Shown here: in pieces, positions 1,503-38,250 of the stretch
How the letters are laid out: each line of letters starts with the position of its first letter
Numbering within the stretch: position 1 is the first letter of the stretch
Virus record (IMG/VR): IMGVR_UViG_3300032286_000926
Span: 39,459-103,458 of that record
Source: a virus
Length of the DNA: 64,000 nucleotides
Strand: one strand, 5' to 3'
Translations under genes and position numbers: made by a program
The notes under the pieces: model-generated
What the model was told of the DNA's origin: nothing
Seen by the model: only the letters and a program-made list of their open reading frames with translations
The model's database searches: none

Positions 1503-3928
1503 TGTCTATTTTACTTTCCGGTAAAGGTATACTTGTAGGTTTTGGTGTTCCACAAGAAGTACCAATTTTATTAGATCCGGCTAGTTACGCAGGTGCGATA
1601 GCCTATGGTAGCGATAATAAGATGTGGTACTGTGATGGACTAACATGGATTTGTATGGATGGATTGTCCGGTTACTCTGGATATAGTGGATATAGTGGTT
1701 ACTCCGGATATAGTGGTTACTCCGGTTATTCAGGATATTCTGGTTACTCTGGATATTCCGGTTACTCTGGATATAGTGGTTACTCCGGATATTCTGGTAT
1801 TTCTGGCTATTCCGGTTACTCTGGTTACTCTGGTGATTCTGGAATAAGTGGATACTCAGGATATTCTGGTATTTCTGGTTACTCTGGTATTTCTGGATAT
1901 TCTGGATATTCTGGATATTCTGGACCATCAGGTTATTCCGGTTATTCTGGAATTTCGGGCTATTCCGGTTACTCAGGATATTCCGGCTCTGGTATAAGTG
2001 GTTATTCCGGATATTCCGGATATTCCGGTCGCTCTGGTTACTCTGGATACTCTGGTTACTCTGGATATTCTGGACCATCAGGTTACTCTGGATACTCTGG
2101 ATATTCCGGATATTCCGGTCGCTCTGGTTACTCTGGTTACTCTGGATATTCTGGATACTCTGGATATTCCGGTTATTCCGGTATCTCCGGTTGGTCTGGA
2201 TTACCTGGAACAGGATTACAAATTGATGGCGTTGCCAATAATTATACAGATTTAACTACAAAAACTCCTGCGGTTAACGATGTTTGGTATGTACTAGATA
2301 CAGATGTATTATACTATCGCACAGCACAATCGACCTGGATTAATTTAGGACCACTCCAAGGTGCTTCTGGTTACTCCGGTTGGTCTGGTATAAGCGGTTG
2401 GTCAGGTACCTCAGGTTATTCTGGTTACTCAGGAATCTCTGGCTGGTCTGGTATAAGTGGTTACTCCGGTGAATCTGGTATTAGTGGTTACTCAGGATAT
2501 TCTGGTATAAGTGGTTGGTCTGGTATTTCTGGATACTCAGGATATAGTGGTATTTCAGGTTGGTCTGGTATTTCTGGATATTCTGGTTATAGTGGTATTT
2601 CAGGTTGGTCTGGTATCTCAGGATATTCTGGTTACTCAGGATTGTCTGGTTCTGGAGTTTCAGGTTATTCTGGTTATTCTGGTTATTCTGGATCCGGTCT
2701 TTCCGGTCTTTCCGGTTACTCTGGTTACTCAGGCATATCAGGTTGGTCTGGTCGTTCCGGTTACTCCGGATATTCTGGTTATTCTGGTTCAGGAATTTCT
2801 GGATATTCTGGTTATTCCGGTCAGTCTGGTTCTGGTTCTTCTGGTATCTCAGGTTATTCTGGTTATTCAGGCATATCAGGTTGGTCTGGTCGTTCCGGTT
2901 ACTCAGGATATTCTGGTTATTCTGGAACTTCAGGATTCTCTGGTTATTCTGGTACCTCTGGATTCTCAGGATATTCTGGTTGGTCTGGAGATAATCCAGG
3001 TTCTTCAGGTTATTCCGGTTATTCTGGAATTTCTGGTTATTCTGGTTGGTCTGGTCGTTCCGGTTATTCGGGTTGGTCTGGCATCTCAGGTTCTGGTGCT
3101 TCTGGTGCTTCTGGATATTCAGGATATTCAGGTTGGTCTGGAGATAATCAAGGTTCTTCAGGTTATTCCGGTCGTTCTGGTTACTCTGGTTACTCAGGAT
3201 ATTCTGGTTGGTCTGGCCGTTCTGGCCAGAATGGTATTGATGGTGATTCTGGATATTCTGGTTACTCTGGATTGTCTGGATTAGGTATTAGTGGTTATTC
3301 TGGTTATTCCGGTCGTTCTGGTTATTCTGGTTACTCTGGATATGTTCCATCTTATTGGTATGGAATTGCGGTTTCTGGACAAACAACTGTTATACCAGAC
3401 GCTAGTGCCGACACATTAAATTTTGCTGCTGGTGCTAATGCAACAATTACATTAAATAATACAACCAATACAATTACAATTGATTCTAAAGCTTCTGCTG
3501 GTGGTATGGCTTCTAGTGGTAATACTATTTTAGTTGTAAATGATACATCATCAACTACTTTGTATCCAACATTATCTGATGCAACAAGTGGTTATGCTAA
3601 TGTAAAAATAACAAGTAGTAAATTAACTTTTGATGCTTCAACAGGAACATTATCATCAACCAACTTTAATTCATTATCTGATGCCACATTAAAAGAAAAT
3701 TTTAATGAGATTGGTGGTGCATTAAGTTTATTGGATAAATTGGATGCATTAAGTTTTACTTGGAAAGATAACGGTCTTAAATCTTATGGCTTTAAAGCGC
3801 AAGATGTTGAGAAAGTTATACCAGAAATTGTTGGTAAAACCGAACAGTATAAAACAATCTCATATATACAATTGATACCTATTTTAGTACAAGCCATTAA
3901 AGAACTTAAAGAAGAATTAAAGAAATGA
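1502..3928 (+). CDS. Fibre protein with (Ser-Gly-Tyr)n repeats and C-terminal peptidase S74-type intramolecular chaperone
   Basis: SG[Y/I/W] tracts at ~1661-2205 and ~2360-3345. C-terminus SDATLKENF...FTWK...YGFKAQDVEKVIPEIV...Y...LVQAIKEL is typical of the S74 autocleaving chaperone. Confidence 0.8.
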   Translation: MSILLSGKGILVGFGVPQEVPILLDPASYAGAIAYGSDNKMWYCDGLTWICMDGLSGYSGYSGYSGYSGYSGYSGYSGYSGYSGYSGYSGYSGYSGYSGISGYSGYSGYSGDSGISGYSGYSGISGYSGISGYSGYSGYSGPSGYSGYSGISGYSGYSGYSGSGISGYSGYSGYSGRSGYSGYSGYSGYSGPSGYSGYSGYSGYSGRSGYSGYSGYSGYSGYSGYSGISGWSGLPGTGLQIDGVANNYTDLTTKTPAVNDVWYVLDTDVLYYRTAQSTWINLGPLQGASGYSGWSGISGWSGTSGYSGYSGISGWSGISGYSGESGISGYSGYSGISGWSGISGYSGYSGISGWSGISGYSGYSGISGWSGISGYSGYSGLSGSGVSGYSGYSGYSGSGLSGLSGYSGYSGISGWSGRSGYSGYSGYSGSGISGYSGYSGQSGSGSSGISGYSGYSGISGWSGRSGYSGYSGYSGTSGFSGYSGTSGFSGYSGWSGDNPGSSGYSGYSGISGYSGWSGRSGYSGWSGISGSGASGASGYSGYSGWSGDNQGSSGYSGRSGYSGYSGYSGWSGRSGQNGIDGDSGYSGYSGLSGLGISGYSGYSGRSGYSGYSGYVPSYWYGIAVSGQTTVIPDASADTLNFAAGANATITLNNTTNTITIDSKASAGGMASSGNTILVVNDTSSTTLYPTLSDATSGYANVKITSSKLTFDASTGTLSSTNFNSLSDATLKENFNEIGGALSLLDKLDALSFTWKDNGLKSYGFKAQDVEKVIPEIVGKTEQYKTISYIQLIPILVQAIKELKEELKK

Positions 3929-5538
3929 CAACAAATTACATTTCAAAAAAAATAAAAACCTTTAATGCAAAGGTTTTTAGAGATTCTTTTAAAGAAAGTA
4001 CACCTAAAAAAATAGGTTACATTTTTCTATCCAAATCAGCTCCATATGCAAATAATGATAATGTTGCAACTGATTTGGTGGATACTGTAAAACAAGAAAA
4101 AGAAATTTGGGACAACATGGTTCTTGGTAAAAGAATTGTACCTAAAGATATTGAACTTGTTATTCCTTTACACACATGGACTGTCAATACCGTATATAAA
4201 CAGTACGATGATACTGCTAATTTAGATAGCTTATTGACAGTATCGGGAAATGCATATCCAATGTATGTCCGTAATTCAGAAGGTAATGTTTATAAGTGTC
4301 TGTCTAATGTAGCACCATCAGGCCAAGGTTCTCAAACTGAACCTACTGGAACATATACCACAAATGATGGATTTATTCAAACTGAACTTACTGATACCTC
4401 AAATTATTTGTGGAAATACATGTTCAATGTTAAAAATTCTAATAAATTTTATACCAATGAATATTCTGATAAATGGATTCCAATTCCATATATTCAAGCT
4501 AATACCAATTTTAGTGATTACAATTACAATACATTAAATTTGGTTGATGGTTCTTTAAATAAAATTATTGTTACAAATTCTGGTTCTAATTATTATCATA
4601 CCGATATTAATGTTGCACCTTTTGCATCTGGTTCAAATACATTAACAATTTTAGATGATATTGATTTAACAACATCGAATATAATTGTAGAATATATGGC
4701 AGTTTCTGGTAATGGAATATATGCAAATAAAACATTTATTACACAAATTGATCCAGCACAACCAAAAACACTATATCTTTCACAACCAACTGTAGGTTCT
4801 GGTGGCGGTACATCAACACCAAATAGAATTAATATTAAAACTCGTATTGTAATTAATGGTGATGGTACTGATACTGTAGCTGATGTTCATTTATCAAACA
4901 CAGGAATATCAAGAATTGATGTTACTAGTGCAGGTAGTGGATTTGTTAAAGCCAATGTAGAAATTTATGGTTCAGGTTCTGGTGCAGCTGCAAGAGCAGT
5001 ATTGCCTCCTAAATTTGGTCATGGTGCCAATCCTGCTATGGAATTAGGCGTATCAAATGTAATGATTTTAAGTCGTATTGGTGAAATTGATTCTACGGAA
5101 AATAACACAATACCAACAGATATTTATTTTAGACAATACGGACTCTTGGTAAATCCATATAAATATGATGATGCGGATCCAATGACAGAAACAAATGCAA
5201 TAGATGTTATGTTGCAAACTTTGGATATTACATTACTTTCATCTTCAAATTTTAATATTAATGAAAAGGTTTATCAAGGCGACCCAAACAATCCAGACTT
5301 TATTGGTTATGTTGTTTCACAAAAATCTTTGGAAGTGAAATTAAATAACACATATAAACAACCAATAATAGGTAAGTTGCTTGTTGGAGCATCATCTGGT
5401 AACCAAAGTACCATCGTAAGTTATGAGAATCCAGACTTAAAACCATATGCTGGTGATATAATTTACGGAAAAAATATTTTAAAGATACAAAGATCCACCG
5501 CTCAAGCTGAAGAAGTAAAATTTGTATTTCAATTTTAA
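3925..5538 (+). CDS. gp8: Baseplate wedge subunit gp8-like (extended)
   Basis: IWDNMV..KRI, W...TVY.QYDD, VYKCLSN, YLWKYMF, GHGANPAMELG, FRQYGLLVNP, EEVKFVFQF motifs match gp8 of T4-like aquatic phages. Confidence 0.85.
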   Translation: MTTNYISKKIKTFNAKVFRDSFKESTPKKIGYIFLSKSAPYANNDNVATDLVDTVKQEKEIWDNMVLGKRIVPKDIELVIPLHTWTVNTVYKQYDDTANLDSLLTVSGNAYPMYVRNSEGNVYKCLSNVAPSGQGSQTEPTGTYTTNDGFIQTELTDTSNYLWKYMFNVKNSNKFYTNEYSDKWIPIPYIQANTNFSDYNYNTLNLVDGSLNKIIVTNSGSNYYHTDINVAPFASGSNTLTILDDIDLTTSNIIVEYMAVSGNGIYANKTFITQIDPAQPKTLYLSQPTVGSGGGTSTPNRINIKTRIVINGDGTDTVADVHLSNTGISRIDVTSAGSGFVKANVEIYGSGSGAAARAVLPPKFGHGANPAMELGVSNVMILSRIGEIDSTENNTIPTDIYFRQYGLLVNPYKYDDADPMTETNAIDVMLQTLDITLLSSSNFNINEKVYQGDPNNPDFIGYVVSQKSLEVKLNNTYKQPIIGKLLVGASSGNQSTIVSYENPDLKPYAGDIIYGKNILKIQRSTAQAEEVKFVFQF

Positions 5539-5547
5539 GGTTAATTC

Positions 5548-8500
5548 ATGTTAGAAAATTACAATTTAAATCCATATTATGACGATTATAACGATGATAA
5601 AAATTTTCATCGTCTATTATTTAAACCTTCTTATGCAGTTCAGGCAAGAGAATTAACTCAAATACAAACTATTCTTCAAAAACAAGTTGAAAGATTTGGT
5701 TCACATGTATTTAAAAACGGTTCTGTTGTTACTGGTGGACAATTTTTCTTTCAAGATAGTATTTCATTAAAAATTGATAATGATTATTCTAACACAACTG
5801 TTAGTGTATCTAATTTTGATAACAAAACTCTTTTATCAGCAAACACACTTTTAGCAGAAGATAAAACAAAACGTGCAGAAGTTATTAAGGTATATGATAC
5901 TAATTTTGGTACTGTTCCAAATGAGCCAAAAACAATTATTGTAAAACAACTTTATGGTGATGCTTTTATTCCTGGTGAAATTATTAAAACTAATGATGCT
6001 AGTCCATACTACGCAACTATTTCAGCCAATGGCGTTACAACATCTAAAACTTTTTCTGTAAATGAAGGCATCTTCTATTTTGAAGGTTTCTTTATCAAAA
6101 CATTACCACAAACTATTGCTATTAACAAATATACTAATGCAAATGTTTATTGTCGTATTGGTTTTGATGTGGTTGAAAGTGTAGTTAAAGCTTCTTCAGA
6201 CACATCATTATTAGACCCAGCATTGGGTTCTTCTAACTATCAAGCTCCTGGTGCCGACCGAGTTAAATTAGATTTAGTTTTGTCAATTAGAAGTTTGGAA
6301 TCTGCTGATGATGAAAAATTCATTGAATTGGTTCGAATTGAACAATCAGAAATCACAAAAGAAAACAAATACCCAATTTATTCTGTACTTGAAGATACTC
6401 TTGCTCGTAGAACTTATGATGAATCTGGCAATTATGTTGTAAAACCGTTTAAAATTTCACTTGAAGATAATGCAGCTAATACTGCACAGACCGATGTTAT
6501 TTTATCTCCAGGTAAAGCATATGTTTATGGTTATGAATTTGAGACAAGTTCACCAACAGTCATAACGGTTGATAAACCAAGAGAAACATTATTAATTCAA
6601 AATAGAAGAATTACTGGTGGATATGGTAATTTTTTATATACAATTAACCATTATAAATCTTTTCCAATTAATTCATTGGGAACTGTTGATATACATTGTG
6701 TTGCAAATGCTTCAATTAATACAACATCTACCGCAACCATTTCAAATACAAAAATTGGTTCGGCTAAAGTAAAAACCGTTGAATATGAATCGGCTTCAAA
6801 CTCATCAAATTCACAAACTTATGTTTATAGAACATTCTTATTTGATGTTGCAATAAATCAACAAATTACAGGTAATGTTGTAAGTGCTACGGGCACAAGT
6901 ATTACTATTGGTAATTATTCGAATGTTGAAAATGCATATCAAGGTGCTAGGTTGCGAATTTCTCAAGGTAAAGGTTCTGGTGAGCCAGCAAAAACAATTA
7001 CTGCTTCCAATGGTTCAACAAAAATATTAACAATCAATCAACCATTTTTAATTACACCGGATGCCAATTCTGTATTTGCAATCGACTTTGATATAAAGGA
7101 AGCCAAATCTTTGGCCACGCATAGTGGAACTAGTTGTTTAAATGCAGCTAATATTGATGATAGGTCTAAAGATTTTTCGCAACCTTACCATGATGTTTAT
7201 ATTTCTGATTCCAAATTAGAACCTATGTTGTTTCCATTGGGTGAAGCATATATTGCCAATAATACTATTGCTGATATGTCTTTTACATATAAACGATTAT
7301 ATACATCACAACAATTTGCCTCCTCTTCTTCACCGGCATTAGGACTTGGTACCAATGAAACATTATCTACTTCTGGTAGTTTAGACAACTATACTATTAC
7401 TGTAATTGACCATAAAACATCTCCATATGCAAATGGCCAAATTATTCCAATTGATAATTTTGAATTAGATATTCAAAATGCTCAAATCAAGGTTGATAAT
7501 GGTAATAATATGATTGCTGATATTGTAGCAACAATTAATGATTCTGGTGCAACAAGAAAAAATAAAACATATGTTGCCGCCAATACAACAATTCAAACTT
7601 CTGGTGGTGTTGATGTTTTTTCAAATACTGCGGTAATTACTTTTGGTGACCAAGGTCAAACACATATTGCTAGTACATATGTTAATAAAATTCCTAGTAC
7701 CGCACAATCTTTATTTGTTTCCGATATTAATAACATTATTTCTATTTTAGATTTTAAAGGCAATTCAATTACTCAAGCAAATACAACAAACGCTTCAGAA
7801 GTAATTACAAAATATGATTTGGATAATGGCCAACGAGATTCATACTATGACCATGGTTCTATTCGTCTCAAAGCTGGAGTAGTACCACCTGTTGGTCCTT
7901 TGGTTGTTTTTTATAACCGATTTAAATCAACTGGTCCTGGATTTTTTACCGTAGATTCTTATTCTGGTATTCCATATTCAAATATTCCAGTATATACTTC
8001 ACCAACAAATAATAATAATTACCAACTTCGTGATGTATTGGATTTTAGACCTGTTCGTTTAGATGCAACTTCTGTAATTCGTTCAAATGTTGTATTTGAT
8101 GTTAGTTCTTCAACAACAGGACCAAAAATTATTAAAAATAATTCGGATGCAATTCTTGATTATTCATTTTATTTACCTCGTATTGATAAAGTTGTTTTGG
8201 ATAAAACCAAAAAATTTGAAGTAATTAAAGGAAATGCAGAAATTGATCCTGTGGTTCCAAATGATACCGATACTACAATGACTTTGTATATTTTGCGTAA
8301 TGGTGCTTATGTTGCCAATACAGCTCAAATTCAAGTGGAATATAAAAACAATAGACGTTATACAATGCGTGATATTGGTACATTAGAAAAACGTATTGAA
8401 AATTTAGAATATTTTACTTCATTATCATTACTTGAACAAGATACTGTTACTAAACAAGATTTAACAATTAAAGATGCTAATGGTTTACAAAGATTTAAAA

Positions 8501-11496: not shown

Positions 11497-11505
11497 GATT
11501 AAATA

Positions 11506-12631: not shown

Positions 12632-12642
12632 TAGGATAATCA

Positions 12643-14631: not shown

Positions 14632-15053
14632 TATACAAAATAAATAATTACAATTCTTTACCAAGTTATTACATGGTAGACCAAAATTCTTTGGAGTTAG
14701 CCAATACCATTAATCCAAATTTAAATTATGTTGTTGGTACATTTTCTGATGCTCAAAAAGCATTAGAGATACAACAACAAAATTGTTTAATGTATCAATC
14801 TGGAGCTTTTTCTATTTGTTCTAATATTGAAATTGATGATGGCGTAATGTGGAAAACTATGCGGAAAGAGGATCCAGAAAATGGTATATACCAAGTGTTT
14901 GATTGTTTTACAGGACAATATACACAATGTTCATCAAAAACAGAAGCCATTAATTTAAATGAACAAAAGAAACAACAATTTTTAATATCATGTGGTTTAG
15001 ATAAAGTTTATGAATTGAATGAAATACCACAACCAAATCAAGGAAATTTATAA
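14628..15053 (+). CDS. Hypothetical protein, possible fibre assembly chaperone
   Basis: ATGA-coupled ORF in the fibre operon; no recognised motif. Confidence 0.55.
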   Translation: MIYKINNYNSLPSYYMVDQNSLELANTINPNLNYVVGTFSDAQKALEIQQQNCLMYQSGAFSICSNIEIDDGVMWKTMRKEDPENGIYQVFDCFTGQYTQCSSKTEAINLNEQKKQQFLISCGLDKVYELNEIPQPNQGNL

Positions 15054-16909: not shown

Positions 16910-16917
16910 AATAAAAC

Positions 16918-18147: not shown

Positions 18148-18161
18148 ATCAACTAAAGACA

Positions 18162-22194: not shown

Positions 22195-22195
22195 A

Positions 22196-25101: not shown

Positions 25102-25139
25102 AACAAAGTCCATTGGGGATAGAGAACCAAGGAAGGTAA

Positions 25140-26668: not shown

Positions 26669-26674
26669 AAAGAA

Positions 26675-27010
26675 ATGGCAACCGGCGCACTTAATGCTTT
26701 TAAAACTGTTACCTCACAATTGACAACAGTTAACCAAATTATATACACGGCTCCTGATGGTTATACTGGAGTTGTTTTGATGGCACAAATTAGTAATGTC
26801 TCAAATGTTACATCAAACGCAACATTTATTTTGGATGACGGTTCTGCCAATACAGAACTATTGAAGGGTTTTGAAATACCACGAAACGATGCAATCTCAG
26901 CAACAGTAGGAAAATTAGTTATTGAAACGGGTAACTCAGTTCGTGGTTACGCTAGTGCAAATGGACAACTAAAGATGGTACTAAGCGTTTTGGAATCAGC
27001 TAATGAGTAA
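26675..27010 (+). CDS. Small beta-rich virion protein
   Basis: NAFKT...IYTAP...AQISN...GKLVIETG...VLSVLE pattern. Confidence 0.65.
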   Translation: MATGALNAFKTVTSQLTTVNQIIYTAPDGYTGVVLMAQISNVSNVTSNATFILDDGSANTELLKGFEIPRNDAISATVGKLVIETGNSVRGYASANGQLKMVLSVLESANE

Positions 27011-30000: not shown

Positions 30001-33000
30001 ATTCTGGTTACTCAGGTATAAGTGGTTGGTCTGGTATTAGTGGATATTCCGGTTATTCTGGTTACTCAGGTGCTTCTGGCCAATCAGGTTTCTCTGGTAA
30101 AGAAGGCCAATTTGGTGGTGCCTCATTCTATAATATATTTGTAACTGGTGCTCCGTCTGGCAATGGCCAAATTGCTTTAAACAATTCCAATTTATCTTTA
30201 GCAACAACATTATCTTACGATTTTGAAGATAGATTCAATTCAAATGTATTTTCATTCATACAAACTATTGATGATTCAACTTCATCAATCAAAGGTTCTG
30301 TTAAAATTACAGAACAAGCAAACAATATAAATTTTGTAATTTATGCTATTACTGGAACTTCAACACAACAAGCAAATGCTTTCATTATACCAGTTTCGTA
30401 TCTTTCTGGTGTAACAACACAATTTGCTATCAATTCAAATGTAATATCATCCTTCATCGTTACTGGTGATAAGGGTGATATTGGTACTTCAGGATACTCT
30501 GGTTATTCTGGTAAATCAGGTTACTCCGGTTATTCTGGAGATTCTGGAATATCAGGTTACTCCGGTTATTCTGGTAGATCCGGTTATTCGGGATATTCTG
30601 GTACCTCAGGCTGGTCAGGTATAAGTGGTTACTCCGGTTACTCTGGCATTTCTGGCTGGTCTGGTATTAGTGGTTATAGTGGATATTCTGGTATTTCAGG
30701 TTGGTCTGGTATTTCTGGATACTCAGGATATAGTGGCATTTCAGGTTGGTCTGGTATTAGTGGATACTCTGGTTACTCAGGTATTTCTGGCTGGTCTGGT
30801 ATTAGTGGATACTCTGGTTACTCAGGTATTTCTGGCTGGTCTGGCATTAGTGGTTATAGTGGATATTCTGGTACTTCAGGTTGGTCTGGTACTTCAGGTT
30901 ACTCAGGTTATAGTGGCACCTCTGGCTGGTCTGGTATTAGTGGATATTCTGGTTACTCCGGCATTTCAGGTTGGTCTGGTATCTCAGGTTATTCTGGTTA
31001 CTCAGGAATCTCCGGCTGGTCTGGTATCTCAGGTTACTCAGGATATTCTGGTACTTCAGGCTGGTCTGGTATTTCTGGTTACTCAGGATATTCTGGTTCT
31101 GGTATCTCAGGTTATTCTGGTTACTCAGGAATCTCCGGCTGGTCTGGTATTAGTGGATATTCTGGTTATTCTGGCATTTCTGGCTGGTCTGGTATTAGTG
31201 GATATTCTGGTTATTCTGGTATCTCAGGTTGGTCTGGCATTAGCGGTTACTCCGGTTATTCTGGAATCTCCGGCTGGTCAGGAATCTCAGGTTATTCTGG
31301 TTACTCAGGAATCTCCGGCTGGTCAGGCATTTCCGGATATTCTGGTTATTCTGGTACTTCAGGTTGGTCTGGTATTTCAGGTTATTCTGGTTATAGTGGT
31401 ATTTCAGGATTCTCAGCTTATTCTGGATATTCCGGTTACTCTGGCCGTTCTGGTTATAGTGGTTACTCTGGTTACTCTGGCCAAGATGGTGGTATGCTTA
31501 CACCAAGCACCTATGTTATGCGTGCCGTTAAAAACGGATCACCACAAACAATTACTTCTAATTCTGATACCGTTGTTACGCTTATAGATGATTTTGATCC
31601 ACAAGGTTGGTTTACATCTAATCAATTTAAACCTACAGTTGCTGGTTATTATAGCCTTAATGCAATGGTTTGGTGGAATGCTGCTTCTGTTACAAATAAC
31701 CAAACCAATATTCAATTTAGAAAAAATGGCAGTACGCAACTTGCAATTGACCAAACACAAACATTAACTGGTTCAGGTTATGCACAGTTATTAGCTACAA
31801 TAACTTATTTTAACGGTACAACTGATTATGTTGAAATTACAGCATACACCGGTAATACAACATCACAAGACATTAATGGTTCAACAAACGGTACATACTT
31901 TACTGCTTCGTTAATTGCGTATGGCCAATCAGGTTGGTCTGGTTATAGTGGATATTCCGGTTATTCTGGTTTGTCTGGTATTTCAGGTTATAGTGGATAT
32001 TCCGGTTCAGGTATTAGTGGTTACTCTGGATATTCTGGTTCAGGTATTAGTGGTTACTCTGGATATTCTGGTTCTGGTATAAGTGGTTATTCTGGTTACT
32101 CAGGAATATCAGGTTGGTCTGGTATTTCTGGTTACTCTGGTTATAGTGGACTTGGATACGCAGGATTAACTTCTTCATCAAATATTACGATTGGCACCGG
32201 TTCAAAAACATTCACAACAAATTTAACTGTTACTCAAACGGCATTTACTGTTGGTAATCGTGTAAGAATTACATACCCAACAAATCCAGTCAATTTCATG
32301 GAAGGTGTTATTACTGGATTTACCACCAATCAATTAGTAGTCAATGTGGACTACACAGGTGGTTCCGGATTATTAACATTATGGAATATTGTTGATGCTG
32401 GTGCAGTAGGAACTTCTGGTTACTCCGGTTATTCTGGTACCTCAGGTGCCTCAGGTATCTCAGGATATTCTGGTTACTCTGGTTCTGGTATTTCAGGATA
32501 TTCTGGTTACTCTGGTTCTGGTATTTCAGGATACTCTGGTTATTCTGGCTCAGGCATTAGTGGTTACTCCGGTTATTCTGGTTCTGGAGTTTCTGGATAT
32601 TCTGGTTATTCTGGTTCAGGAATTTCAGGATACTCCGGTTATTCTGGATCAGGTATCTCTGGTTACTCTGGATATTCCGGTTCAGGTATCTCTGGTTACT
32701 CCGGTTATTCTGGATCAGGCATCTCTGGTTACTCCGGTTACTCTGGTTCTGGTATCTCTGGTTATTCTGGTTATAGTGGTACTTCTGGTATCTCTGGCTA
32801 TTCTGGTTATAGTGGTACTTCTGGTTTCTCTGGTAAAGAAGGCCAGTTTGGTGGCGCATCATTCTACAATACTTTCAGCACAGGTACACCATCTGCCAAC
32901 GGACAAATTGCTTTAAATAACACAAACTTATCTTTAGCAACAACTTTAACATATGACTTTGAAGATAGATTTGGTTCTAATGCTTATAGCTTTATTCAAA

Positions 33001-34295
33001 CAATTGATGATTCAACATCTTCAGTTAAAGGTTCTGTTAAAATTACGGAACAAGCTAATAATATAAACTTTGTAATTTATGCTATTACAGGTAATCACAC
33101 TCATGGTGCCACATCTTTTGATATACCAGTTTCATACTTGTCGGGTGTAACAACACAATTTGCTAATAATGCGAATGTAATAACATCATTCCTTGTAACC
33201 GGTGATAGAGGTGATTCTGGTATTTCCGGTTGGTCTGGTCGTTCTGGTTATTCTGGTTACTCCGGCATCTCTGGTATTTCTGGATATTCTGGATATTCTG
33301 GTTCTGGTATTTCTGGATATTCTGGATATTCTGGTTCTGGTATTTCTGGTTATTCTGGTTATTCTGGATCAGGCATTAGTGGTTACTCCGGTTATTCTGG
33401 TTCAGGTATAAGTGGTTACTCCGGTTATTCTGGTTCTGGTATCTCTGGTTATTCTGGTTACTCTGGTTCGTCTGGTATTTCTGGTTACTCCGGTTATTCT
33501 GGTTCAGGAGTTTCTGGTTACTCTGGTTACTCTGGCTCTGGTATTTCAGGTTATAGTGGATACTCCGGTTCAGGCATTAGTGGATATTCTGGTTACTCTG
33601 GTTCGTCTGGTATTTCAGGTTATAGTGGATATTCTGGTATAAATGGCACAGGTTCTTCAGGAATATCCGGTTATTCTGGTTACTCTGGTACCAATGGTAC
33701 CAATGGCAGTAACGGCAATTCTGGTATTTCTGGTTACTCCGGTTATTCTGGTACCTCAGGTACCTCAGGTATCTCAGGATATTCAGGATATTCTGGTTGG
33801 TCTGGTACAGCTGGACCATCAACTTCGATTAATGCCACAGATGATTCATCAACAACTACATTATATCCAGTCATGGTGGGTGCTGCTGGTTCTGCACAAA
33901 CACCTAAAGTATCAACAACTAAGATTTATTTTAATGCGTCCACAGGAACAATTTACGCAACTGCTAAGTCATTCTTAATTCCTCACCCAACAATTGAAGG
34001 TAAGAAATTAGTATATGGCTCGTTAGAGGGACCTGAGAACGGTGTTTATGTTCGTGGTACTTTAAATGGTGAAAACACAATTGAGTTGCCTGATTATTGG
34101 ACTAAGTTGGTTGATAAAAATACTATTACAGTAAATCTTACCGCAATTGGTAAACCACAAAATCTTTATGTTCAAAACATTACAGACAATGTAATCACTA
34201 TTGCAAACGGTAATTGGTTTAATAAAGATATTAACTGTTACTTTACTGTATATGCAGAACGTATTGATATTGCAAAACTTGTGGTAGAACAATAA
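27003..34295 (+). CDS. Giant (2430 aa) Ser-Gly-Tyr/Ile/Trp repeat fibre with interspersed globular domains, including a C1q/TNF-like domain
   Basis: Eight SGX tracts; three copies of a ~125-aa domain; C1q-like domain at ~31485-31925; C-terminal KSFLIPHP...LEGPENGVYVRG fibre domain. Confidence 0.8.
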   Translation: MSNNRIHSGKTKKIPSANVSAERYEFISLGETEPDLGVPAGNSYVLSANTNGTRAWVHPTAIQGTSGYSGYSGTSGYSGYSGTSGWSGISGYSGYSGTSGYSGISGYSGISGWSGISGYSGYSGISGYSGYSGISGYSGYSGISGYSGISGYSGYSGVTPETTTYTANSISLTNGVYVSGNVGSVQTFNDGNQYILTDGSNTGPAWIVDVGFTGVTSFNQVDLNIQYTQNSGHTVYIQLYNNNTTTWDNIGSYNGLSGYVQFQLGVIDYAAYINAGAVSVRLYHSNTGNPAHQSNIDYVAIVDSISGGQGPRGLSGTSGYSGYSGKSGYSGYSGQAGSAIAIKGSVATFTSLPSTGNNVGDIYYVTDVGSLYVWNGASWDLIGQIAGASGISGYSGYSGTSGWSGISGYSGYSGISGWSGTSGFSGKEGQFGGASFYNIFTTGTPAANGQIALNNASVSLATTLTYDFEDRFSTNAYSFIQTIDDSTSSIKGSVKITEQANTLNFVIYAITGNHTHGVTSFDIPVSYLSGPTTGFANNANVITSFLVTGDRGDSGTSGFSGISGYSGYSGISGWSGRSGYSGYSGISGYSGYSGISGWSGISGYSGYSGISGWSGISGYSGYSGISGWSGISGYSGYSGISGWSGISGYSGYSGTSGWSGISGYSGTSGWSGISGYSGYSGTSGWSGISGYSGYSGISGYSGYSGISGYSGYSGISGWSGISGYSGYSGISGWSGISGYSGYSGISGWSGISGYSGYSGISGWSGISGYSGYSGISGWSGISGYSGYSGYSGDSGISGYSGYSGRSGYSGYSGTSGWSGISGYSGYSGISGWSGISGYSGYSGISGWSGISGYSGYSGISGWSGISGYSGYSGTSGWSGISGYSGYSGISGWSGISGYSGYSGISGWSGISGYSGYSGISGWSGISGYSGYSGTSGWSGISGYSGYSGTSGWSGISGYSGYSGISGWSGISGYSGYSGISGYSGYSGISGWSGISGYSGYSGYSGISGWSGISGYSGYSGYSGASGQSGFSGKEGQFGGASFYNIFVTGAPSGNGQIALNNSNLSLATTLSYDFEDRFNSNVFSFIQTIDDSTSSIKGSVKITEQANNINFVIYAITGTSTQQANAFIIPVSYLSGVTTQFAINSNVISSFIVTGDKGDIGTSGYSGYSGKSGYSGYSGDSGISGYSGYSGRSGYSGYSGTSGWSGISGYSGYSGISGWSGISGYSGYSGISGWSGISGYSGYSGISGWSGISGYSGYSGISGWSGISGYSGYSGISGWSGISGYSGYSGTSGWSGTSGYSGYSGTSGWSGISGYSGYSGISGWSGISGYSGYSGISGWSGISGYSGYSGTSGWSGISGYSGYSGSGISGYSGYSGISGWSGISGYSGYSGISGWSGISGYSGYSGISGWSGISGYSGYSGISGWSGISGYSGYSGISGWSGISGYSGYSGTSGWSGISGYSGYSGISGFSAYSGYSGYSGRSGYSGYSGYSGQDGGMLTPSTYVMRAVKNGSPQTITSNSDTVVTLIDDFDPQGWFTSNQFKPTVAGYYSLNAMVWWNAASVTNNQTNIQFRKNGSTQLAIDQTQTLTGSGYAQLLATITYFNGTTDYVEITAYTGNTTSQDINGSTNGTYFTASLIAYGQSGWSGYSGYSGYSGLSGISGYSGYSGSGISGYSGYSGSGISGYSGYSGSGISGYSGYSGISGWSGISGYSGYSGLGYAGLTSSSNITIGTGSKTFTTNLTVTQTAFTVGNRVRITYPTNPVNFMEGVITGFTTNQLVVNVDYTGGSGLLTLWNIVDAGAVGTSGYSGYSGTSGASGISGYSGYSGSGISGYSGYSGSGISGYSGYSGSGISGYSGYSGSGVSGYSGYSGSGISGYSGYSGSGISGYSGYSGSGISGYSGYSGSGISGYSGYSGSGISGYSGYSGTSGISGYSGYSGTSGFSGKEGQFGGASFYNTFSTGTPSANGQIALNNTNLSLATTLTYDFEDRFGSNAYSFIQTIDDSTSSVKGSVKITEQANNINFVIYAITGNHTHGATSFDIPVSYLSGVTTQFANNANVITSFLVTGDRGDSGISGWSGRSGYSGYSGISGISGYSGYSGSGISGYSGYSGSGISGYSGYSGSGISGYSGYSGSGISGYSGYSGSGISGYSGYSGSSGISGYSGYSGSGVSGYSGYSGSGISGYSGYSGSGISGYSGYSGSSGISGYSGYSGINGTGSSGISGYSGYSGTNGTNGSNGNSGISGYSGYSGTSGTSGISGYSGYSGWSGTAGPSTSINATDDSSTTTLYPVMVGAAGSAQTPKVSTTKIYFNASTGTIYATAKSFLIPHPTIEGKKLVYGSLEGPENGVYVRGTLNGENTIELPDYWTKLVDKNTITVNLTAIGKPQNLYVQNITDNVITIANGNWFNKDINCYFTVYAERIDIAKLVVEQ

Positions 34296-34972
34296 TGGGT
34301 GTAAATTATAATCCTCAAATTGTTACTAGCGGATTAACATTAGCTTTAGATGCAGCCAATCCAAAAAGTTATCCTGGTACAGGTACAACTTGGTCTGATT
34401 TAAGTGGTAATAGTAACAATGGTACATTAACTAATGGTCCAACTTATACTACTAATAACGCCGGAGCTTTAATTTTTGATGGTTCAAATGACCATATTGC
34501 TTCTTTTGCAACCCAATTATCTGGTACAGGAAGCAAATCAATAGGAGTTTGGTTTTTAACAACATCAGCAATCCGTCAAGGTTTATGTGGAACAAGAGTA
34601 GATGCAGTTTCAAACCAAGGTTGGGTATTTTTAATTAATAGAACTACAGCCGGTAATTTAACATATTTTGTTACTGGCGGTAGTGAGATAGAATTAGCCG
34701 CCGGAATAACAACAAATACATGGTATTATGCGGTAGTAACTTATGCTTCTTCTGTTGCAAGATTATATATTAATGGTAAATTTCTTGGGTCTGTATCGGG
34801 ATTTACGGCACCATCATCATCAACATATAATGGTACTATTGGTGGTGAAGGACAATCCAGTTTGGGTGGATTTGCTGGAAGAATATCAAATCTTCAAATT
34901 TACAATCGTCTTATAACTGCTGAAGAAGTTTTAGAAAATTTCAATGCTCAACGAGGAAGGTATGGCATATAA
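34295..34972 (+). CDS. LamG/concanavalin A-like lectin domain protein
   Basis: IVTSGL.LALDAANPKSYPG.G..W.DLSGN; FDG; WYY.VVTY...LYING; GRISN.QIYNR. Confidence 0.85.
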   Translation: MGVNYNPQIVTSGLTLALDAANPKSYPGTGTTWSDLSGNSNNGTLTNGPTYTTNNAGALIFDGSNDHIASFATQLSGTGSKSIGVWFLTTSAIRQGLCGTRVDAVSNQGWVFLINRTTAGNLTYFVTGGSEIELAAGITTNTWYYAVVTYASSVARLYINGKFLGSVSGFTAPSSSTYNGTIGGEGQSSLGGFAGRISNLQIYNRLITAEEVLENFNAQRGRYGI

Positions 34973-35220
34973 TGTATGAACAAAGACAATACTTAATTAT
35001 ACCAACAACAGAATTATTCAAAGTTGATTTTTTACAAATTGAAGAAACTTCTATTGACACGGTAAGAAAATCGGTTGACAACACAAAAACATTTATTAAA
35101 TGGAATGGTGAAGAACCAACTTTTATTTCTGAAATTTTAAATTCAGAAGGACCATATAACCACGATGAAATTTTAGATATTCTTTCTACGGAAGAATGGA
35201 ATTTTATGGAAACTATTTAA
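34972..35220 (+). CDS. Small acidic hypothetical protein associated with LamG genes
   Basis: VDF.QI.ETS..TVRKSVD.TKTFIKW...Y.H.EIL.IL...EW; coupled on both sides. Confidence 0.65.
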   Translation: MYEQRQYLIIPTTELFKVDFLQIEETSIDTVRKSVDNTKTFIKWNGEEPTFISEILNSEGPYNHDEILDILSTEEWNFMETI

Positions 35221-35885
35221 TGGCACTTAACCATTCACCATCTATTGTTACAAATGGACTAACCATTTGTTTGGATGCAGCCAATTCCAAATCATATTCT
35301 GGTTCTGGTACTGCATGGAATGATATTAGTGGTAATGGAAATAATGCAATTTTAGAAGGCACACCAACATATAGTGCTGCAAATAATGGTAGTTTTGTGT
35401 TTAATGGAACATCACAATCTGCCAATTTAGGAAATGTAATTGTATCTACAACTGCATTTTCAGCATCAGCTTGGGTTTATGATACTGATACTGCTGGTGG
35501 TTATAGACATATAATAGCAAAAGATGGTCAATTTTTATTTAGAATTGATAGCACTGCTGAAGGTGGTAATTTAAGTGCTTTTGTTTACATAGCAGGAACT
35601 CCAGAACCTAGGTTGTCAACTGCTTGGACAAAAAACGTTTGGGCTAATGTATGTTTTGTATGGAACACAGATGGTACTCTTAGATTGTTTATTAATGGTG
35701 TGTTAAAAAATTCTTCATCTACTCGTACTGGAATTTCAAGTACAAATACAATTTTTAGAGTTGGTGGATACACTAGCAATTATTTTAAAGGCAATATTTC
35801 TAATTCTATGTTTTACAATAGAACACTTACTAATGAAGAAGTATTACAAAACTTTAATGCCCTCAAAGGAAGGTACGGTATATGA
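35220..35885 (+). CDS. LamG/concanavalin A-like lectin domain protein
   Basis: Paralog of 34295. Start re-assigned to ATG 35220 (TAATG). Confidence 0.85.
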   Translation: MALNHSPSIVTNGLTICLDAANSKSYSGSGTAWNDISGNGNNAILEGTPTYSAANNGSFVFNGTSQSANLGNVIVSTTAFSASAWVYDTDTAGGYRHIIAKDGQFLFRIDSTAEGGNLSAFVYIAGTPEPRLSTAWTKNVWANVCFVWNTDGTLRLFINGVLKNSSSTRTGISSTNTIFRVGGYTSNYFKGNISNSMFYNRTLTNEEVLQNFNALKGRYGI

Positions 35886-36568
35886 GTGTTTATAGTGGAC
35901 CTGAAGTTGTAAATGATGGATTAGTTTTATCTTTTGATGCAGCTAGTTTAAAAAGTTATTCTGGTTCTGGTAACGTTTGGTATGATATTAGTGTTAATAA
36001 TTCTTCAGCAACATTAAATAACTCACCATCTTTTAGTGGTTCTAATAATGGTTATTTGCAATTCAATGGCACTAATCAAAATGGAAATTTGGTTACTCCA
36101 TCTTTAATACCTACTGGTAATTTGATTTCTATTGGAGTTTGGTGTTATGGTATCGTATCAAAAGCACAAACATTATTATTTGGTATTAATGCTTCTGGTA
36201 GTAGAACTATAAATTTACACTTACCATATTCAAGTAATATTGCTTATTGGGATGCCGGTGGAACAACAGTATATGATAGAATTGCAGTAAGTGTTGATAC
36301 TGGTTATCAAGGATGGCATTATTGGGCTGCTACTAAAAATGCAACTAGTGGTGTAATGAACTTGTATAAAGATGGTGTATTAATAGCTACAGGAACTGGT
36401 AAAACAATACCACTAGATACAACTACGCAAGTTAATATATGTAGTTATAATAATCAAGTTGATTATCATCAAGGTTATATTTCTAAAATAGAAATTTATA
36501 ATAAAGAATTAACAGCTGAAGAAATAAGAAATAATTTTAATGCCCACCGTGGTCGTTTTAACATCTAA
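35882..36568 (+). CDS. LamG/concanavalin A-like lectin domain protein
   Basis: Paralog of 34295 and 35220. Confidence 0.85.
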   Translation: MSVYSGPEVVNDGLVLSFDAASLKSYSGSGNVWYDISVNNSSATLNNSPSFSGSNNGYLQFNGTNQNGNLVTPSLIPTGNLISIGVWCYGIVSKAQTLLFGINASGSRTINLHLPYSSNIAYWDAGGTTVYDRIAVSVDTGYQGWHYWAATKNATSGVMNLYKDGVLIATGTGKTIPLDTTTQVNICSYNNQVDYHQGYISKIEIYNKELTAEEIRNNFNAHRGRFNI

Positions 36569-36579
36569 TAAATAGAACT

Positions 36580-38250
36580 ATGGCAAATACATATAAAAAT
36601 ATAGTAATCACACCAAATAGTGGATCCACAACAGATGATCCAAAGATTGTCTTTTCTGGTGCAAACACTTCGGTAAATACTGATATTACTCTCAGAGTAT
36701 ATCCTACATCCAATGGAACCGTATCACTTGAAGGTTCGGCTGGTCAATTATTTTCTATTACCAATCAATTAACAGGAACAATATATTCTGTTAATGATAT
36801 TTCTGGTATTCCTAGTATTGAAGTTCTTGATAATGGTGATGTGAAACTTGCACAATATAATGGTAATGTTCTTATCGGAACAGGCACAGATAATAATGTA
36901 GATAAATTTCAAATTGTTGGTTCTGCAAATGCAACATCGCTTAGTGTTCGAGGATATGGTCCAGTCATTAATACTAGTGGTTATTGGATTGGTGCCGGTT
37001 CTACTGGTACATCTGGTTACTCCGGTTATTCTGGTTCGTCTGGTATCTCTGGTTATAGTGGATATTCAGGTAAAGGTTATGATGGTTTAACATCTACAAC
37101 ATCTACAACTATTGCAACAGGTTCTAAAGCATTTACAGTAAACCAAACACAAGGAACAAATGCATATGTTGTAGGTGCAAGAGTTCGAGTTGCAAGTTCA
37201 GCATCACCAGCCAACTTTATGGAAGGTTCAATAACTGCTTACACTACAACAACATTAACAGTTAACGTAGATTTAATTGGCGGTTCAGGAACTATAGCTT
37301 CTTGGAATATTAGTATAACTGGTAGTGCTGGAACTTCAGGATATTCTGGTTATTCTGGTTCTGGTATTTCTGGTTACTCCGGTTATTCCGGTTCTGGTAT
37401 CTCTGGTTACTCCGGTTATTCCGGTTCAGGAGTTTCTGGTTATTCTGGTTATTCCGGTTCTGGTATCTCAGGTTATAGTGGATATTCCGGTTCTGGTATT
37501 TCAGGATACTCTGGTTACTCCGGAACTTCTGGTATCTCCGGTTACTCCGGTTATTCTGGATCAGGCATCTCTGGTTACTCCGGTTACTCTGGTTCAGGAA
37601 TTTCTGGTTATTCTGGATATTCCGGTTCAGGTATTAGTGGTTACTCTGGATATTCCGGTTCTGGTATCTCTGGTTACTCCGGTTATTCCGGTTCAGGAGT
37701 TTCTGGCTATTCTGGATATTCCGGTTCTGGTATCTCTGGTTACTCCGGTTATTCCGGTTCAGGAGTTTCTGGCTATTCTGGATATTCCGGTTCTGGTATC
37801 TCTGGTTATAGTGGATATTCTGGTTCTGGAGTTTCTGGCTATTCTGGTTACTCAGGTTGGTCTGGTCCTACTGGTACTGGCACATCTGGTTATTCCGGTT
37901 ATTCTGGTGCAGCTGGTTATGGAACACTAAGAATACTCTCACAAACAACCACCGCAACTTTGGCAATTAATAGTGATAGTTATGATGCCGCTTTTGTTAC
38001 TGCATTGGCTGGAACTATGGCCGTATCTGCACCAACAGGTTCACCATCAAATGGTCAAAAAATAATTATTAGAATTAAAGATAACGGTACAATTAGGTCT
38101 ATTTCATGGACAACTACATCAGGTGGTTGGAGACCGGTTGCTACTGTATTACCAACAGTTACTATTGCCAATAAAACACTTTATGTTGCTGCTCTATATA
38201 ATACTGAAGAAACTTATTGGGATGTAATTGCAGTTGCACAACAAGCTTAA
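36580..38250 (+). CDS. Fibre protein with 11-residue (SGISGYSGYSG)n repeats
   Basis: SLEGSAGQLFSITN...YSVNDISGIPSIEV N-terminal domain; repeat tract ~37330-37910; C-terminal APTGSPSNGQKIIIRIKDNGT...WDVIAV domain. Confidence 0.75.
   Translation: MANTYKNIVITPNSGSTTDDPKIVFSGANTSVNTDITLRVYPTSNGTVSLEGSAGQLFSITNQLTGTIYSVNDISGIPSIEVLDNGDVKLAQYNGNVLIGTGTDNNVDKFQIVGSANATSLSVRGYGPVINTSGYWIGAGSTGTSGYSGYSGSSGISGYSGYSGKGYDGLTSTTSTTIATGSKAFTVNQTQGTNAYVVGARVRVASSASPANFMEGSITAYTTTTLTVNVDLIGGSGTIASWNISITGSAGTSGYSGYSGSGISGYSGYSGSGISGYSGYSGSGVSGYSGYSGSGISGYSGYSGSGISGYSGYSGTSGISGYSGYSGSGISGYSGYSGSGISGYSGYSGSGISGYSGYSGSGISGYSGYSGSGVSGYSGYSGSGISGYSGYSGSGVSGYSGYSGSGISGYSGYSGSGVSGYSGYSGWSGPTGTGTSGYSGYSGAAGYGTLRILSQTTTATLAINSDSYDAAFVTALAGTMAVSAPTGSPSNGQKIIIRIKDNGTIRSISWTTTSGGWRPVATVLPTVTIANKTLYVAALYNTEETYWDVIAVAQQA

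Follow-up and report, generated by a model that had tools for sequence, protein, structure and literature searches.

Only three Ser-Gly-X tract ORFs, P0001, P0002, and P0003, are carried on a 103-kb viral contig, all on the + strand and all inside the window (the whole stretch of DNA analyzed, 64,000 nucleotides). Baseplate wedge, tail-fiber, neck, gp15, and portal genes surround them, and from this context we infer that the three products are virion proteins. The portal is closest to cyanomyovirus portals, at only about 50% identity, which suggests a T4-like myovirus distantly related to the cyanomyoviruses. An earlier note on this DNA had described a repeat spanning 1661-37910; within that span, ~25 kb between the repeat ORFs is occupied by other structural genes. 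The features are as follows, with the basis for each in parentheses.

1502-3928, + strand: P0001, 808-aa fiber protein (ORF; Collagen 5e-62, Peptidase_S74 6e-11, PHROG tail fiber families)
1661-2215, + strand: P0001 tract 1, aa 54-238, mostly pure Ser-Gly-Tyr (triplet scan)
2216-2359, + strand: P0001 small module, LPGTG...VWYVLDTDVLYY...WINLGPLQG (read from translation)
2360-3346, + strand: P0001 tract 2, aa 287-615, with several G-x-G breaks and a 15-mer array (triplet scan)
2501-2635, + strand: P0001 15-mer array, three units (pattern match)
3677-3832, + strand: Peptidase_S74 intramolecular chaperone, P0001 C terminus (Pfam)
27003-34295, + strand: P0002, 2430-aa beaded fiber (ORF, Pfam Collagen)
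28020-28160, + strand: P0002 small module, ..SLPSTGNNVGDIYYVTDVGSLYVWNGASWDLIGQI.. (read from translation; homology search)
28305-28646, + strand: domain A copy 1, about 114 aa (translation, homologues)
28647-30122, + strand: longest tract, 164 Gly-X-Ser triplets, X string (IWIYY)n (triplet scan, TRF)
28779-28958, 28995-29084, 29139-29363, 29436-29930, 30597-31091, and 31125-31394, + strand: P0002 15-mer arrays (pattern match)
30123-30464 and 32859-33200, + strand: domain A copies 2 and 3 (translation)
30465-31496, + strand: second 15-mer tract, aa 1155-1498 (one G-x-G break, one Gly-to-Ala)
31497-31922, + strand: C1q/TNF-like jelly roll between tracts (predicted fold)
31923-32156, + strand: first P0002 11-mer tract, aa 1641-1718 (AF2 pLDDT 41-56, no secondary structure)
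32001-32099, 32478-32774, 33297-33461, and 33498-33596, + strand: P0002 11-mer arrays (pattern match)
32157-32399, + strand: "Mid" beta domain, about 81 aa (AF2 pLDDT >90)
32400-32858, + strand: 11-mer tract, aa 1800-1952 (nine SGSG-I/V-SGYSGY units in succession, 32478-32774)
33201-33821, + strand: 11-mer and irregular tract, aa 2067-2273 (pattern match, TRF)
33822-34292, + strand: P0002 C-terminal domain (sequence comparison)
36580-38250, + strand: P0003, 556-aa fiber protein (ORF; Collagen 25.2 bits)
37354-37518 and 37555-37851, + strand: P0003 11-mer arrays (pattern match)
43609-47728, + strand: three glycosyltransferase-family-2 (GT2) genes, two fused to methyltransferase domains (annotation)

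The Ser-Gly-Tyr repeat with a regular grammar reported in the earlier note is real: the tracts, the 15-mer, and the 11-mer were all recovered from the translations. Its description as proline free is borne out as well, with Pro at just 0 to 0.4% of tract residues (3 positions in P0001 tracts and 2 in P0002 tracts); Gly accounts for 33.5 to 34.7%, Asp/Glu/Lys/Arg for 0.6 to 2.6%, and Thr for 0.6 to 2%. In P0001 and P0002, counts over Gly-X-Y tracts five or more triplets long showed Tyr, Ile, or Trp at X, and Ser at Y in >90% of triplets (148/160 in P0001, 391/424 in P0002). No tract of the three proteins contains a KGE or KGD triplet, and by residue counts the known collagen-stabilizing chemistry (Pro/Hyp, Lys-Gly-Glu/Asp salt bridges, Thr-rich triplets) is absent from the tracts. 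Long triplet runs reach 37, 33, and 24 triplets in P0001, where tract 1 includes 14 consecutive SGY units at 1667-1792, and 164, 71, and 34 in P0002, while the longest in P0003 is only 9. Throughout the 164-triplet run, the longest unbroken one (aa 549-1040), Gly occupies each third residue without exception. Pfam Collagen (PF01391; gathering threshold, 27.2 bits) matched P0001 with 206 bits and P0002 with 490 bits (9e-151), and P0003 fell just under the cut-off. The ESM Atlas clusters nearest an 11-mer tract were collagen repeat clusters, with scores at lead level only.

Two superperiods overlie the triplets. The 15-mer is SG-x-SGW-SG-x-SGYSGY, with the X string IWIYY, and the 11-mer, SGSG-I/V-SGYSGY, was matched as SGSG-x-SGYSGY. 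Arrays were matched in the regions where they had been noted earlier (the 15-mer mostly at 28660-31480 and 2360-2640, the 11-mer with its broken triplet register at 31980-33640 and 37330-37860), and TRF agreed: repeats with periods of 45/90/180 and 33/66/99 nt coincided with the peptide arrays. Removing four residues from the 15-mer gives the 11-mer, which passes gradually into plain triplet runs within one tract. Its break is of the G-x-G ("G1G") type, one residue being missing after each third triplet, and returns at 11-residue intervals through as many as nine or ten successive units. At the DNA level, the 32 15-mer peptides of identical sequence come in 31 versions (mean nucleotide identity, 80%), and the 19 identical 11-mers of P0002 come in 19. 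Such divergent coding of one and the same peptide unit means that the protein is what selection acts on, and the repeat is more than a DNA-level one; the tract register is kept by purifying selection. Among other, unrelated phages, chosen without regard to this feature, a three-triplet break interval followed by an aliphatic X accounted for 146 of 382 intervals and was the mode in 16 proteins. Recurrence of the G-x-G break at three-triplet intervals is seen across the fiber class; a Trp at every fifth triplet is particular to this phage.

Globular domains alternate with the tracts. P0001 consists of an N-terminal domain, an (SGY)n tract, the small module, a mixed tract, a tip region, and the S74 chaperone; P0002 has 8 repeat tracts (1324 residues) with 7 globular domains between them and more at the N and C termini; and P0003 has an N domain, a mid domain, an 11-mer tract (37321-37881), and a C-terminal domain. 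The LP..GD.Y.V..LYVW modules that the earlier note placed at ~2205-2360 and ~28005-28160 were read at 2216-2359 and 28020-28160, and homologues of the small module gave 31 tblastn matches in 30 fetched loci. The S74 chaperone that it named was matched by Pfam above threshold (PF13884; E value of 6.6e-12, 46 bits versus a cut-off of 22), and the translation carries ..NSLSDATLKEN.., the Ser-Asp...Lys cleavage motif, at the start of the domain. Its C1q-like domain has a predicted gC1q/TNF jelly-roll fold: AF2 gave a pLDDT of >90 over about 133 residues, and Foldseek matched the model to the gC1q of C1QL1/2/3 (TMt, 0.80 to 0.85; rmsd, 2.2 to 2.8 Å; E value of ~1e-7) and also to TNF ligands and phage fiber knobs. 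The resemblance is one of fold only, at 12 to 16% identity; Pfam C1q (PF00386) gave no match to the inserted domain at E values up to 1, and the PDB gave none by sequence. Domain A had no match in Pfam or the PDB. The mid domain of P0002 is 53% identical to that of P0003 (37072-37320) and gave only weak, small-barrel matches in the PDB, and the C-terminal domain of P0002 is common to small genes beside gp5 in cyanomyoviruses and to tail-fiber-like proteins of Flavobacterium phages. Gly-X-Y sequence flanks both sides of 16/18 homologues of domain A, 22/23 of the mid domain, and 38/69 of the C1q-like domain. The same beads occur in other orders in other phages, indicating modular shuffling.

We think that the three genes probably specify beaded, homotrimeric, collagen-like virion fibers of a T4-like myovirus. 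The Pfam Collagen matches, the gC1q/TNF fold, the S74 domain, and the tail-fiber/baseplate context favor the unusual, probably trimeric, collagen-like fiber that was among the proposals of the earlier note. A Gly content of one-third places the tracts in the collagen regime rather than that of polyglycine-II (PPII) bundles. A trimerization/registration domain (C1q/TNF-like fold, Peptidase_S74) is present next to the tracts and points to a trimer, since solved gC1q/TNF relatives, phage fiber knobs included, are trimers. The (Gly-X-Ser)n tracts, with Tyr, Trp, or Ile at X, would fold as collagen-type triple helices started and held in register by trimeric globular domains; the jelly roll and S74 would act as clamps, as would probably the small module and other beads. 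At 0.286 nm per residue, the resulting beads-on-a-rod shafts would measure ~380 nm in P0002, 134 nm in P0001, and 49 nm in P0003, and the 164-triplet tract, if triple-helical, ~140 nm. The 15-mer would be a five-triplet super-unit amplified in this lineage. In the 11-mer, the triple helix would lack one residue after every third triplet; this form occupies P0003 and the distal third of P0002, where it would most likely make the shaft more flexible or regularly kinked. The periodic Tyr/Trp ladder could, as the earlier note proposed, stack on sugars, cross-link as dityrosine, or self-associate.

The stabilizers described for non-animal collagens are Pro, salt bridges of the KGE/KGD type, and glycosylated Thr (PMC11923368). 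As Pro, charge pairs, and Thr are practically lacking here, stability must come from other sources, which could be the repeated trimeric clamps, packing of the alternating aliphatic and aromatic X side chains, and possibly hydration of the Y-position Ser or its O-glycosylation via the nearby GT2-methyltransferase genes. These genes are candidate modifiers of the fiber serines, and their homologues adjoin SGY-fiber genes in 23 to 31 fetched loci. Aromatic residues at X and Ser at Y were reportedly among the least favorable in the host-guest peptides of Persikov and coworkers in 2000, which counts against a triple helix. The 11-mer tracts have just three triplets between breaks, too few for stability alone, and this also counts against it. 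In the gC1q fold both termini lie at the base, and it is hard to see a straight shaft running through an inserted copy.

AF2 monomer runs gave both tract types a pLDDT of 30 to 60 and no secondary structure; a missing monomeric fold is as expected for an obligate oligomer, and a disordered chain would look alike. That the tracts are flexible, largely disordered, FUS-like sticky tethers between trimeric beads, serving as entropic springs or adhesive polymers, is unlikely, even though the low pLDDT, a Ser/Gly/Tyr composition resembling [G/S]Y[G/S] low-complexity domains, and the absence of every known collagen stabilizer would suit it. Linkers are selected for composition, whereas here Gly never leaves its register in 164 triplets and identical 15-mers are maintained despite 20% synonymous divergence; three identical parallel chains with trimeric domains at both ends are, moreover, the best case for a triple helix. 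It is more doubtful still that the 11-mer tracts alone adopt a regular non-collagen fold or another new trimeric fiber fold, for example, a narrow solenoid that encloses the aliphatic residue and displays two Tyr ladders on its surface. An 11-residue period that breaks the triplet register, the subthreshold Collagen score of P0003, and an exact three-triplet interval in unrelated phages, suggestive of a quantized structural unit, would fit such a fold. However, AF2 sees no compact monomer, though regular solenoids are usually recognized; the 11-mer, four residues short of the 15-mer, grades into ordinary triplets; and a triple helix can accommodate a single Gly-X-Gly break, according to the crystal structure of Bella et al. 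(2006) as outlined in PMC11923368.

Two other folds proposed in the earlier note fared poorly. A PPII bundle, like those of the snow-flea antifreeze protein, the gp38 tip of phage S16, and the ALK glycine-rich domain, is highly improbable: helices with two or more PPII neighbors contain about two-thirds Gly or more (bioRxiv 10.1101/2023.11.25.568672), roughly twice the share found in the tracts, each third residue is a bulky Tyr, Trp, or Ile, and the (SGY)14 and 164-triplet runs lack turn positions, although the three-residue Gly period fits PPII geometry and the 11-mer, read as nine residues and a short turn, approaches the length of the helices in such bundles. The AF2 monomer runs yielded neither a compact monomeric fold nor a PPII bundle, a negative prediction that is weak evidence. 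We give the least credence of all to LARKS-type or cross-beta reversible amyloid built from SYSGYS-like segments. Local SGYSGY strings do resemble the FUS LARKS segment, but the tracts are bounded by folded trimeric domains within a virion protein and hold an exact 3-, 11-, or 15-residue register under purifying selection, and LARKS require neither strict register nor superperiods.

The collagen-like fiber type favored here is widespread in IMG/VR environmental phages. The newness claimed in the earlier note stands only in part, since viral metagenomes contain the repeat type in abundance and a cultured phage in GenBank has it too; our literature and structure search found no paper on the fiber type and no solved structure of it. 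The cultured example is gene P19250A_0023 (KX815270.1, 1201 aa) of Methylophilaceae phage P19250A, a siphovirus of a freshwater methylotroph rather than a T4-like myovirus. Like P0001 to P0003, its product has SG-Y/F/W/I tracts with almost no Pro, and it carries the small module (..DLPPSGNLNDAYIVQSNGDLYVWDGSAW..) and a P0003-like C-terminal domain; the gene directly follows host-specificity J and tail-fiber genes. Its tracts differ in that they contain more Phe, their X positions are more often acidic, and both a regular IWIYY 15-mer and a long 11-mer array are missing. It is annotated as a "tail length tape-measure protein" and not recognized as a fiber, and we found no paper discussing it.

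Among characterized systems, the tail-fiber proteins EPclA and EPclB of E. coli O157:H7 prophages are experimentally trimeric triple helices with capping trimerization domains (PMC3368898). They share with the present proteins Gly-X-Y tracts, capping trimerization domains, and internal globular beads (Ghosh et al. 2012). Their collagen domains, unlike the tracts here, are short, spanning 322 residues at most, and their stability is ascribed to an abundance of Pro and charged residues. The EPcl domains PfN, PCoil, Pf2, and PfC differ from those here, and none has aromatic X with Ser at Y.

In BclA of Bacillus anthracis and proteins of the C1q/collectin type, a collagen-like stalk carries a trimeric C1q/TNF jelly roll, a likeness that holds here by predicted fold, and in the BclA repeat the hydroxy-amino acid at Y is O-glycosylated. 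Those proteins have a terminal head, a Gly-Pro-Thr or Pro/Hyp-rich repeat, and a stalk of tens of triplets, whereas the present fibers have an internal jelly roll, tracts of up to 164 triplets, and practically no Pro. Glycosylated Gly-Pro-Thr peptides are treated in PMC11923368. The cyanomyoviruses, also T4-like, have large fiber ORFs that are about half Gly-X-Y, among them P-SSM2 orf028, a tail-fiber candidate (Sullivan et al. 2005, PMC1079782); X and Y in these are often Pro, Ser, or Thr, and no superperiod is reported there. The G1G interruption of type IV and other non-fibrillar collagens (Bella et al. 2006) is the same kind of break, with one residue missing between two glycines; other collagens are known to have it only sporadically, whereas here it falls every 11 residues and does so in many phages. 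Set beside these systems, the Gly-(Tyr/Trp/Ile)-Ser shaft would be a collagen-type repeat that dispenses with every known collagen stabilizer.

The 64-kb window is the right-hand part of a 103-kb contig, and all of its large open reading frames (ORFs) lie on the + strand. Three of them encode fiber proteins with Ser-Gly-X repeats, which confirms the repeats described in the earlier note:

1502-3928, + strand, P0001, 808 aa, Ser-Gly-X repeats
27003-34295, + strand, P0002, 2,430 aa, Ser-Gly-X repeats
36580-38250, + strand, P0003, 556 aa, Ser-Gly-X repeats

A six-frame search of the whole contig revealed no Ser-Gly-X ORF beyond these three. The span 1661-37910, to which the repeat had been assigned, is therefore made up of three genes and ~25 kb of other structural genes. 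Residues at the X and Y positions were counted in tracts of ≥5 Gly-X-Y triplets. The X position was occupied in the order Tyr > Ile > Trp, and Y was Ser in 148/160 triplets of P0001 and 391/424 triplets of P0002; Pro occurred at 3 and 2 tract positions, respectively. Across the SG tracts, which total 469 (P0001), 1,324 (P0002), and 173 (P0003) residues, Gly accounted for 33.5 to 34.7%, Pro for 0 to 0.4%, and Asp, Glu, Lys, and Arg combined for 0.6 to 2.6%. No Lys-Gly-Glu or Lys-Gly-Asp triplet was present in any SG tract of the three proteins. The longest gap-free run comprised 164 triplets (P0002 aa 549 to 1040).

Two higher-order periods, of 15 and 11 residues, had been noted within the tracts. 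Both the 15-mer, SG(I/T)SGWSG(I/T)SGYSGY, and the 11-mer, SGSG(I/V)SGYSGY, are real and lie where they had been placed, as judged from TRF periods (45/90/180 nt for the 15-mer and 33/66/99 nt for the 11-mer) and from pattern matches, which gave the following arrays:

28779-29930 and 30597-31394, + strand, 15-mer arrays in P0002
2501-2635, + strand, 15-mer array in P0001
32001-32099, 32478-32774, and 33297-33596, + strand, 11-mer arrays in P0002
37354-37851, + strand, 11-mer array in P0003

Reduced to their X residues, the P0002 tracts give the string (IWIYY)n, with a Trp-to-Trp distance of exactly five triplets in 35 of 42 spacings. At P0002 aa 1472 (~31416-31418), a natural Gly-to-Ala substitution (SGFSAYSGY) lies within a 15-mer tract whose register is otherwise perfect. 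In the 11-mer tracts, Gly residues are spaced 2-3-3-3, i.e., one residue short after each third triplet, with Ser within the break and then Ile or Val at X; exactly three triplets separate the breaks in 16/19 intervals of P0002 and 12/16 intervals of P0003. The three-triplet interval between G-x-G breaks was also the mode in P0001 homologs (146/382 intervals; modal in 16 proteins), although these homologs were not chosen for it; the 11-mer is therefore a recurrent unit of the fiber class. Trp at every fifth triplet was not general, its spacing varying in other members; what members of the class share is the recurrence of an aliphatic X at intervals of two to three triplets, with one or two aromatic X residues in between. 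The 11-mer is class-wide and the 15-mer local.

The DNA encoding the repeats is far more varied than the peptides. In P0002, 31 DNA versions (mean identity, 80%) underlie 32 identical 15-mer peptides and 19 versions underlie 19 identical 11-mers, while 17 identical SGYSGYSGY units of P0001 have 17 versions; the coding draws on each of the six Ser codons and on three Gly codons. The repeats do not reflect recent DNA slippage. What is conserved is protein sequence and register, and the perfect Gly register is clearly kept under purifying selection.

Pfam collagen matched P0001 (5e-62) and P0002 (9e-151), and P0003 scored 25.2 bits, slightly below the 27.2-bit cutoff. The S74 chaperone proposed in the earlier note was borne out by a Peptidase_S74 intramolecular chaperone match at the end of P0001 (46 bits against a cutoff of 22), with an LSDATLKEN motif. 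The remaining inserted domains had no Pfam match (E value up to 1) and no PDB sequence match. With an alignment of 56 homologous IMG/VR domains as AF2 input for P0002 aa 1470 to 1730, the inserted domain was predicted to be a ten-stranded β sandwich (pLDDT of >90). It can be superposed on C1QL1/2/3 gC1q domains (TMt, 0.80 to 0.85; rmsd, 2.2 to 2.8 Å) and also on TNF-family ligands; among phage fiber knobs, the fold matched the phi812 central spike, the cyanophage A4 tail, and the A-1(L) short tail fiber. Because of this superposition, the description of the domain as C1q-like is correct at the level of fold, but not as a sequence family. The 81-residue "mid" domain, common to P0002 and P0003, was confidently modeled as a small β domain; no clear structural relative was found, a Foldseek search of the P0003 model returning weak small-barrel matches. 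Domain A, another globular insertion, is present in three copies in P0002, and a small module with the pattern LP..GD.Y.V..LYVW interrupts the tracts of P0001 and P0002. A tblastn search of cultured phages with the whole of P0002 matched the C-terminal domain only, in proteins without repeats.

Around P0001 to P0003 are genes for baseplate wedge, tail-fiber, fiber-connector, neck (gp13/14-like), and gp15-like proteins, and the best cultured matches of the portal are marine cyanomyovirus portals (~50% identity). From the genes alone, this is a late structural module, and virion fibers are therefore the natural reading of P0001 to P0003. The T4 late-promoter motif TATAAATA was not enriched, and none lay upstream of the three genes. 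Other features of the module are as follows:

26675-27010, + strand, 111-codon ORF overlapping the start of the 2,430-codon P0002 gene by 8 nt
34295-34972, 35196-35885, and 35882-36568, three tandem paralogs of ~225 aa between P0002 and P0003
43609-47728, + strand, three GT2 glycosyltransferase genes, two fused to methyltransferase

The 8-nt overlap suggests translational coupling. The three paralogs, the first with a Concanavalin A-like/Laminin_G_3 fold, all match PHROG "virion structural protein" families and are candidate sugar-binding fiber-tip proteins. In 23 to 31 of the fetched IMG/VR loci, homologs of the GT2-methyltransferase genes are found no more than 3 kb from SGY-type fiber genes. 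The gp15-like tail-sheath stabilizer (50042-51418) carries a C-terminal PA14/GLEYA carbohydrate-binding domain, unusual for such a tail-completion protein, and the tail-fiber region contains a row of four RCC1-repeat (β-propeller) genes (12643-19301) with PHROG "regulator of chromosome condensation" matches.

A word-seeded HMMER search with P0001 recovered 544 metagenomic proteins (E value of <1e-10), most of them nearly Pro free, with an aromatic residue at X and Ser at Y. Exact back-translated patterns were found in 11 (11-mer) and 7 (15-mer) IMG/VR contigs with G+C contents of 0.34 to 0.57, and IMG/VR also yielded >120 relatives of the C1q-like domain and >440 P0003-like matches. The fetched loci contained 153 distinct ORFs with ≥30 triplets, 104 of them proline free with aromatic X and Ser at Y; the longest gap-free run was 332 triplets, in a related contig. 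The same beads are reused in different orders between contigs, and the mid and A domains are nearly always flanked by tracts on either side. The C1q-like domain also has relatives in pelagiphages and OM43 phages; those examined (two pelagiphages) are small stand-alone proteins without tracts. When 185,579 species genomes were scanned for (SGY)5, most matches were short runs or in other reading frames, and long tracts occurred in only two contigs; the class is thus essentially viral and belongs mainly to lytic phages. Such genes are very rare in cellular genome bins; one is a 1,101-aa ORF (948 residues in Gly-X-Y, 181 SG-aromatic triplets) at 2839-6141 of the Nitrospirae MAG contig JADFXO010000033.1, possibly a contig of phage origin that was binned with the MAG.

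A beaded homotrimeric collagen-like fiber is the best-supported reading of P0001 to P0003, because Gly makes up one-third of tract residues, as in the collagen regime, the register is selected, and collagen-like phage fibers have precedents. Such proteins with capping trimerization domains have been shown experimentally to be trimeric triple helices (PMC3368898), and Gly-X-Y fiber candidates are known from T4-like cyanophages (PMC1079782). The earlier note had proposed a collagen-like, polyglycine-II, or LARKS-type fiber; the collagen-like, probably trimeric part of this is supported, but the other two readings are not. PPII bundles require about two-thirds Gly or more (bioRxiv 10.1101/2023.11.25.568672), and polyglycine-II is disfavored by a Gly content of one-third, by bulky X residues, and by the absence of turns from runs of 14 to 164 triplets. 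LARKS, or compositional low complexity, does not fit a strict register under purifying selection. As AF2 monomers, the end of the 15-mer tract with the first 11-mer tract (pLDDT of 41 to 60) and the long 11-mer tract of P0003 (pLDDT of ~30) had no secondary structure. These predictions are weak evidence against a solenoid or PPII bundle that folds on its own and are compatible with an obligate trimer or disorder.

A lone G-x-G break is tolerated by the triple helix, according to Bella et al. 2006 as cited in PMC11923368, and no precedent for an array of such breaks every 11 residues was found in the literature. The 11-mer tracts are most likely a regularly interrupted, more flexible helix; that they instead adopt a distinct fold is a live alternative.

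In host-guest peptides, aromatic residues at X are unfavorable, as is Ser at Y. Non-animal collagens are stabilized by proline, KGE/KGD salt bridges, and glycosylated threonine (PMC11923368), and the tracts of P0001 to P0003 have none of the three; what is unusual about them is chemical. Stability of a beaded trimeric helix could come from repeated trimeric clamps, from surface packing of aliphatic and aromatic side chains, and from Ser O-glycosylation by the products of the adjacent GT2-methyltransferase genes. A bolder proposal, which we consider possible but unlikely, is that aromatic-serine Gly-X-Ser constitutes a fourth, undescribed route to a stable triple helix (an aliphatic/aromatic zipper and/or phage-encoded Ser O-glycosylation) and that the 11-mer, [G-x][G-aliphatic-S][G-aromatic-S]2, is a new regular fiber form (one-residue slip per three triplets, or another fold) providing a mechanically distinct distal shaft.

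Genes of this class probably encode very long adsorption fibers of uncultured aquatic phages. They are of real interest both to research on collagen and to phage structural biology. Should the tracts prove to be triple helices, they would widen the sequence rules of collagen and offer an uncharged, tyrosine-rich biomaterial scaffold without hydroxyproline; if not, they represent an abundant undescribed fibrous fold. By regularly dropping one residue in every 11, the 11-mer tracts provide a natural experiment on interruptions of collagen. No description of SGYSGY, Gly-Tyr-Ser, or proline-free collagen-like phage proteins was found in the literature covered, which takes in a minority of subscription journals. 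A cultured Methylophilaceae phage, P19250A, does carry a member, P19250A_0023 (1,201 aa; L255:5056-8661, KX815270.1), located after the J and tail-fiber genes; its annotation as "tail length tape-measure protein" is probably wrong. It is a proline-poor Gly-(Tyr/Phe/Trp/Ile)-Ser fiber protein with the small module of P0001 and P0002, and it was reached through the one weak match obtained when the repeat arrays were compared by BLAST with cultured phages under a low-complexity filter. P0001 to P0003 thus belong to a known kind, the collagen-like phage fiber, as a variant of it. Current accounts of how non-animal collagen helices form and persist rest on proline, Lys-Glu/Asp salt bridges, and glycosylated threonine (PMC11923368), yet fibers of this class, found in hundreds of environmental phages, hold a perfect Gly register over as many as 164 triplets (P0002) or 332 triplets (a related contig) despite the missing stabilizers.
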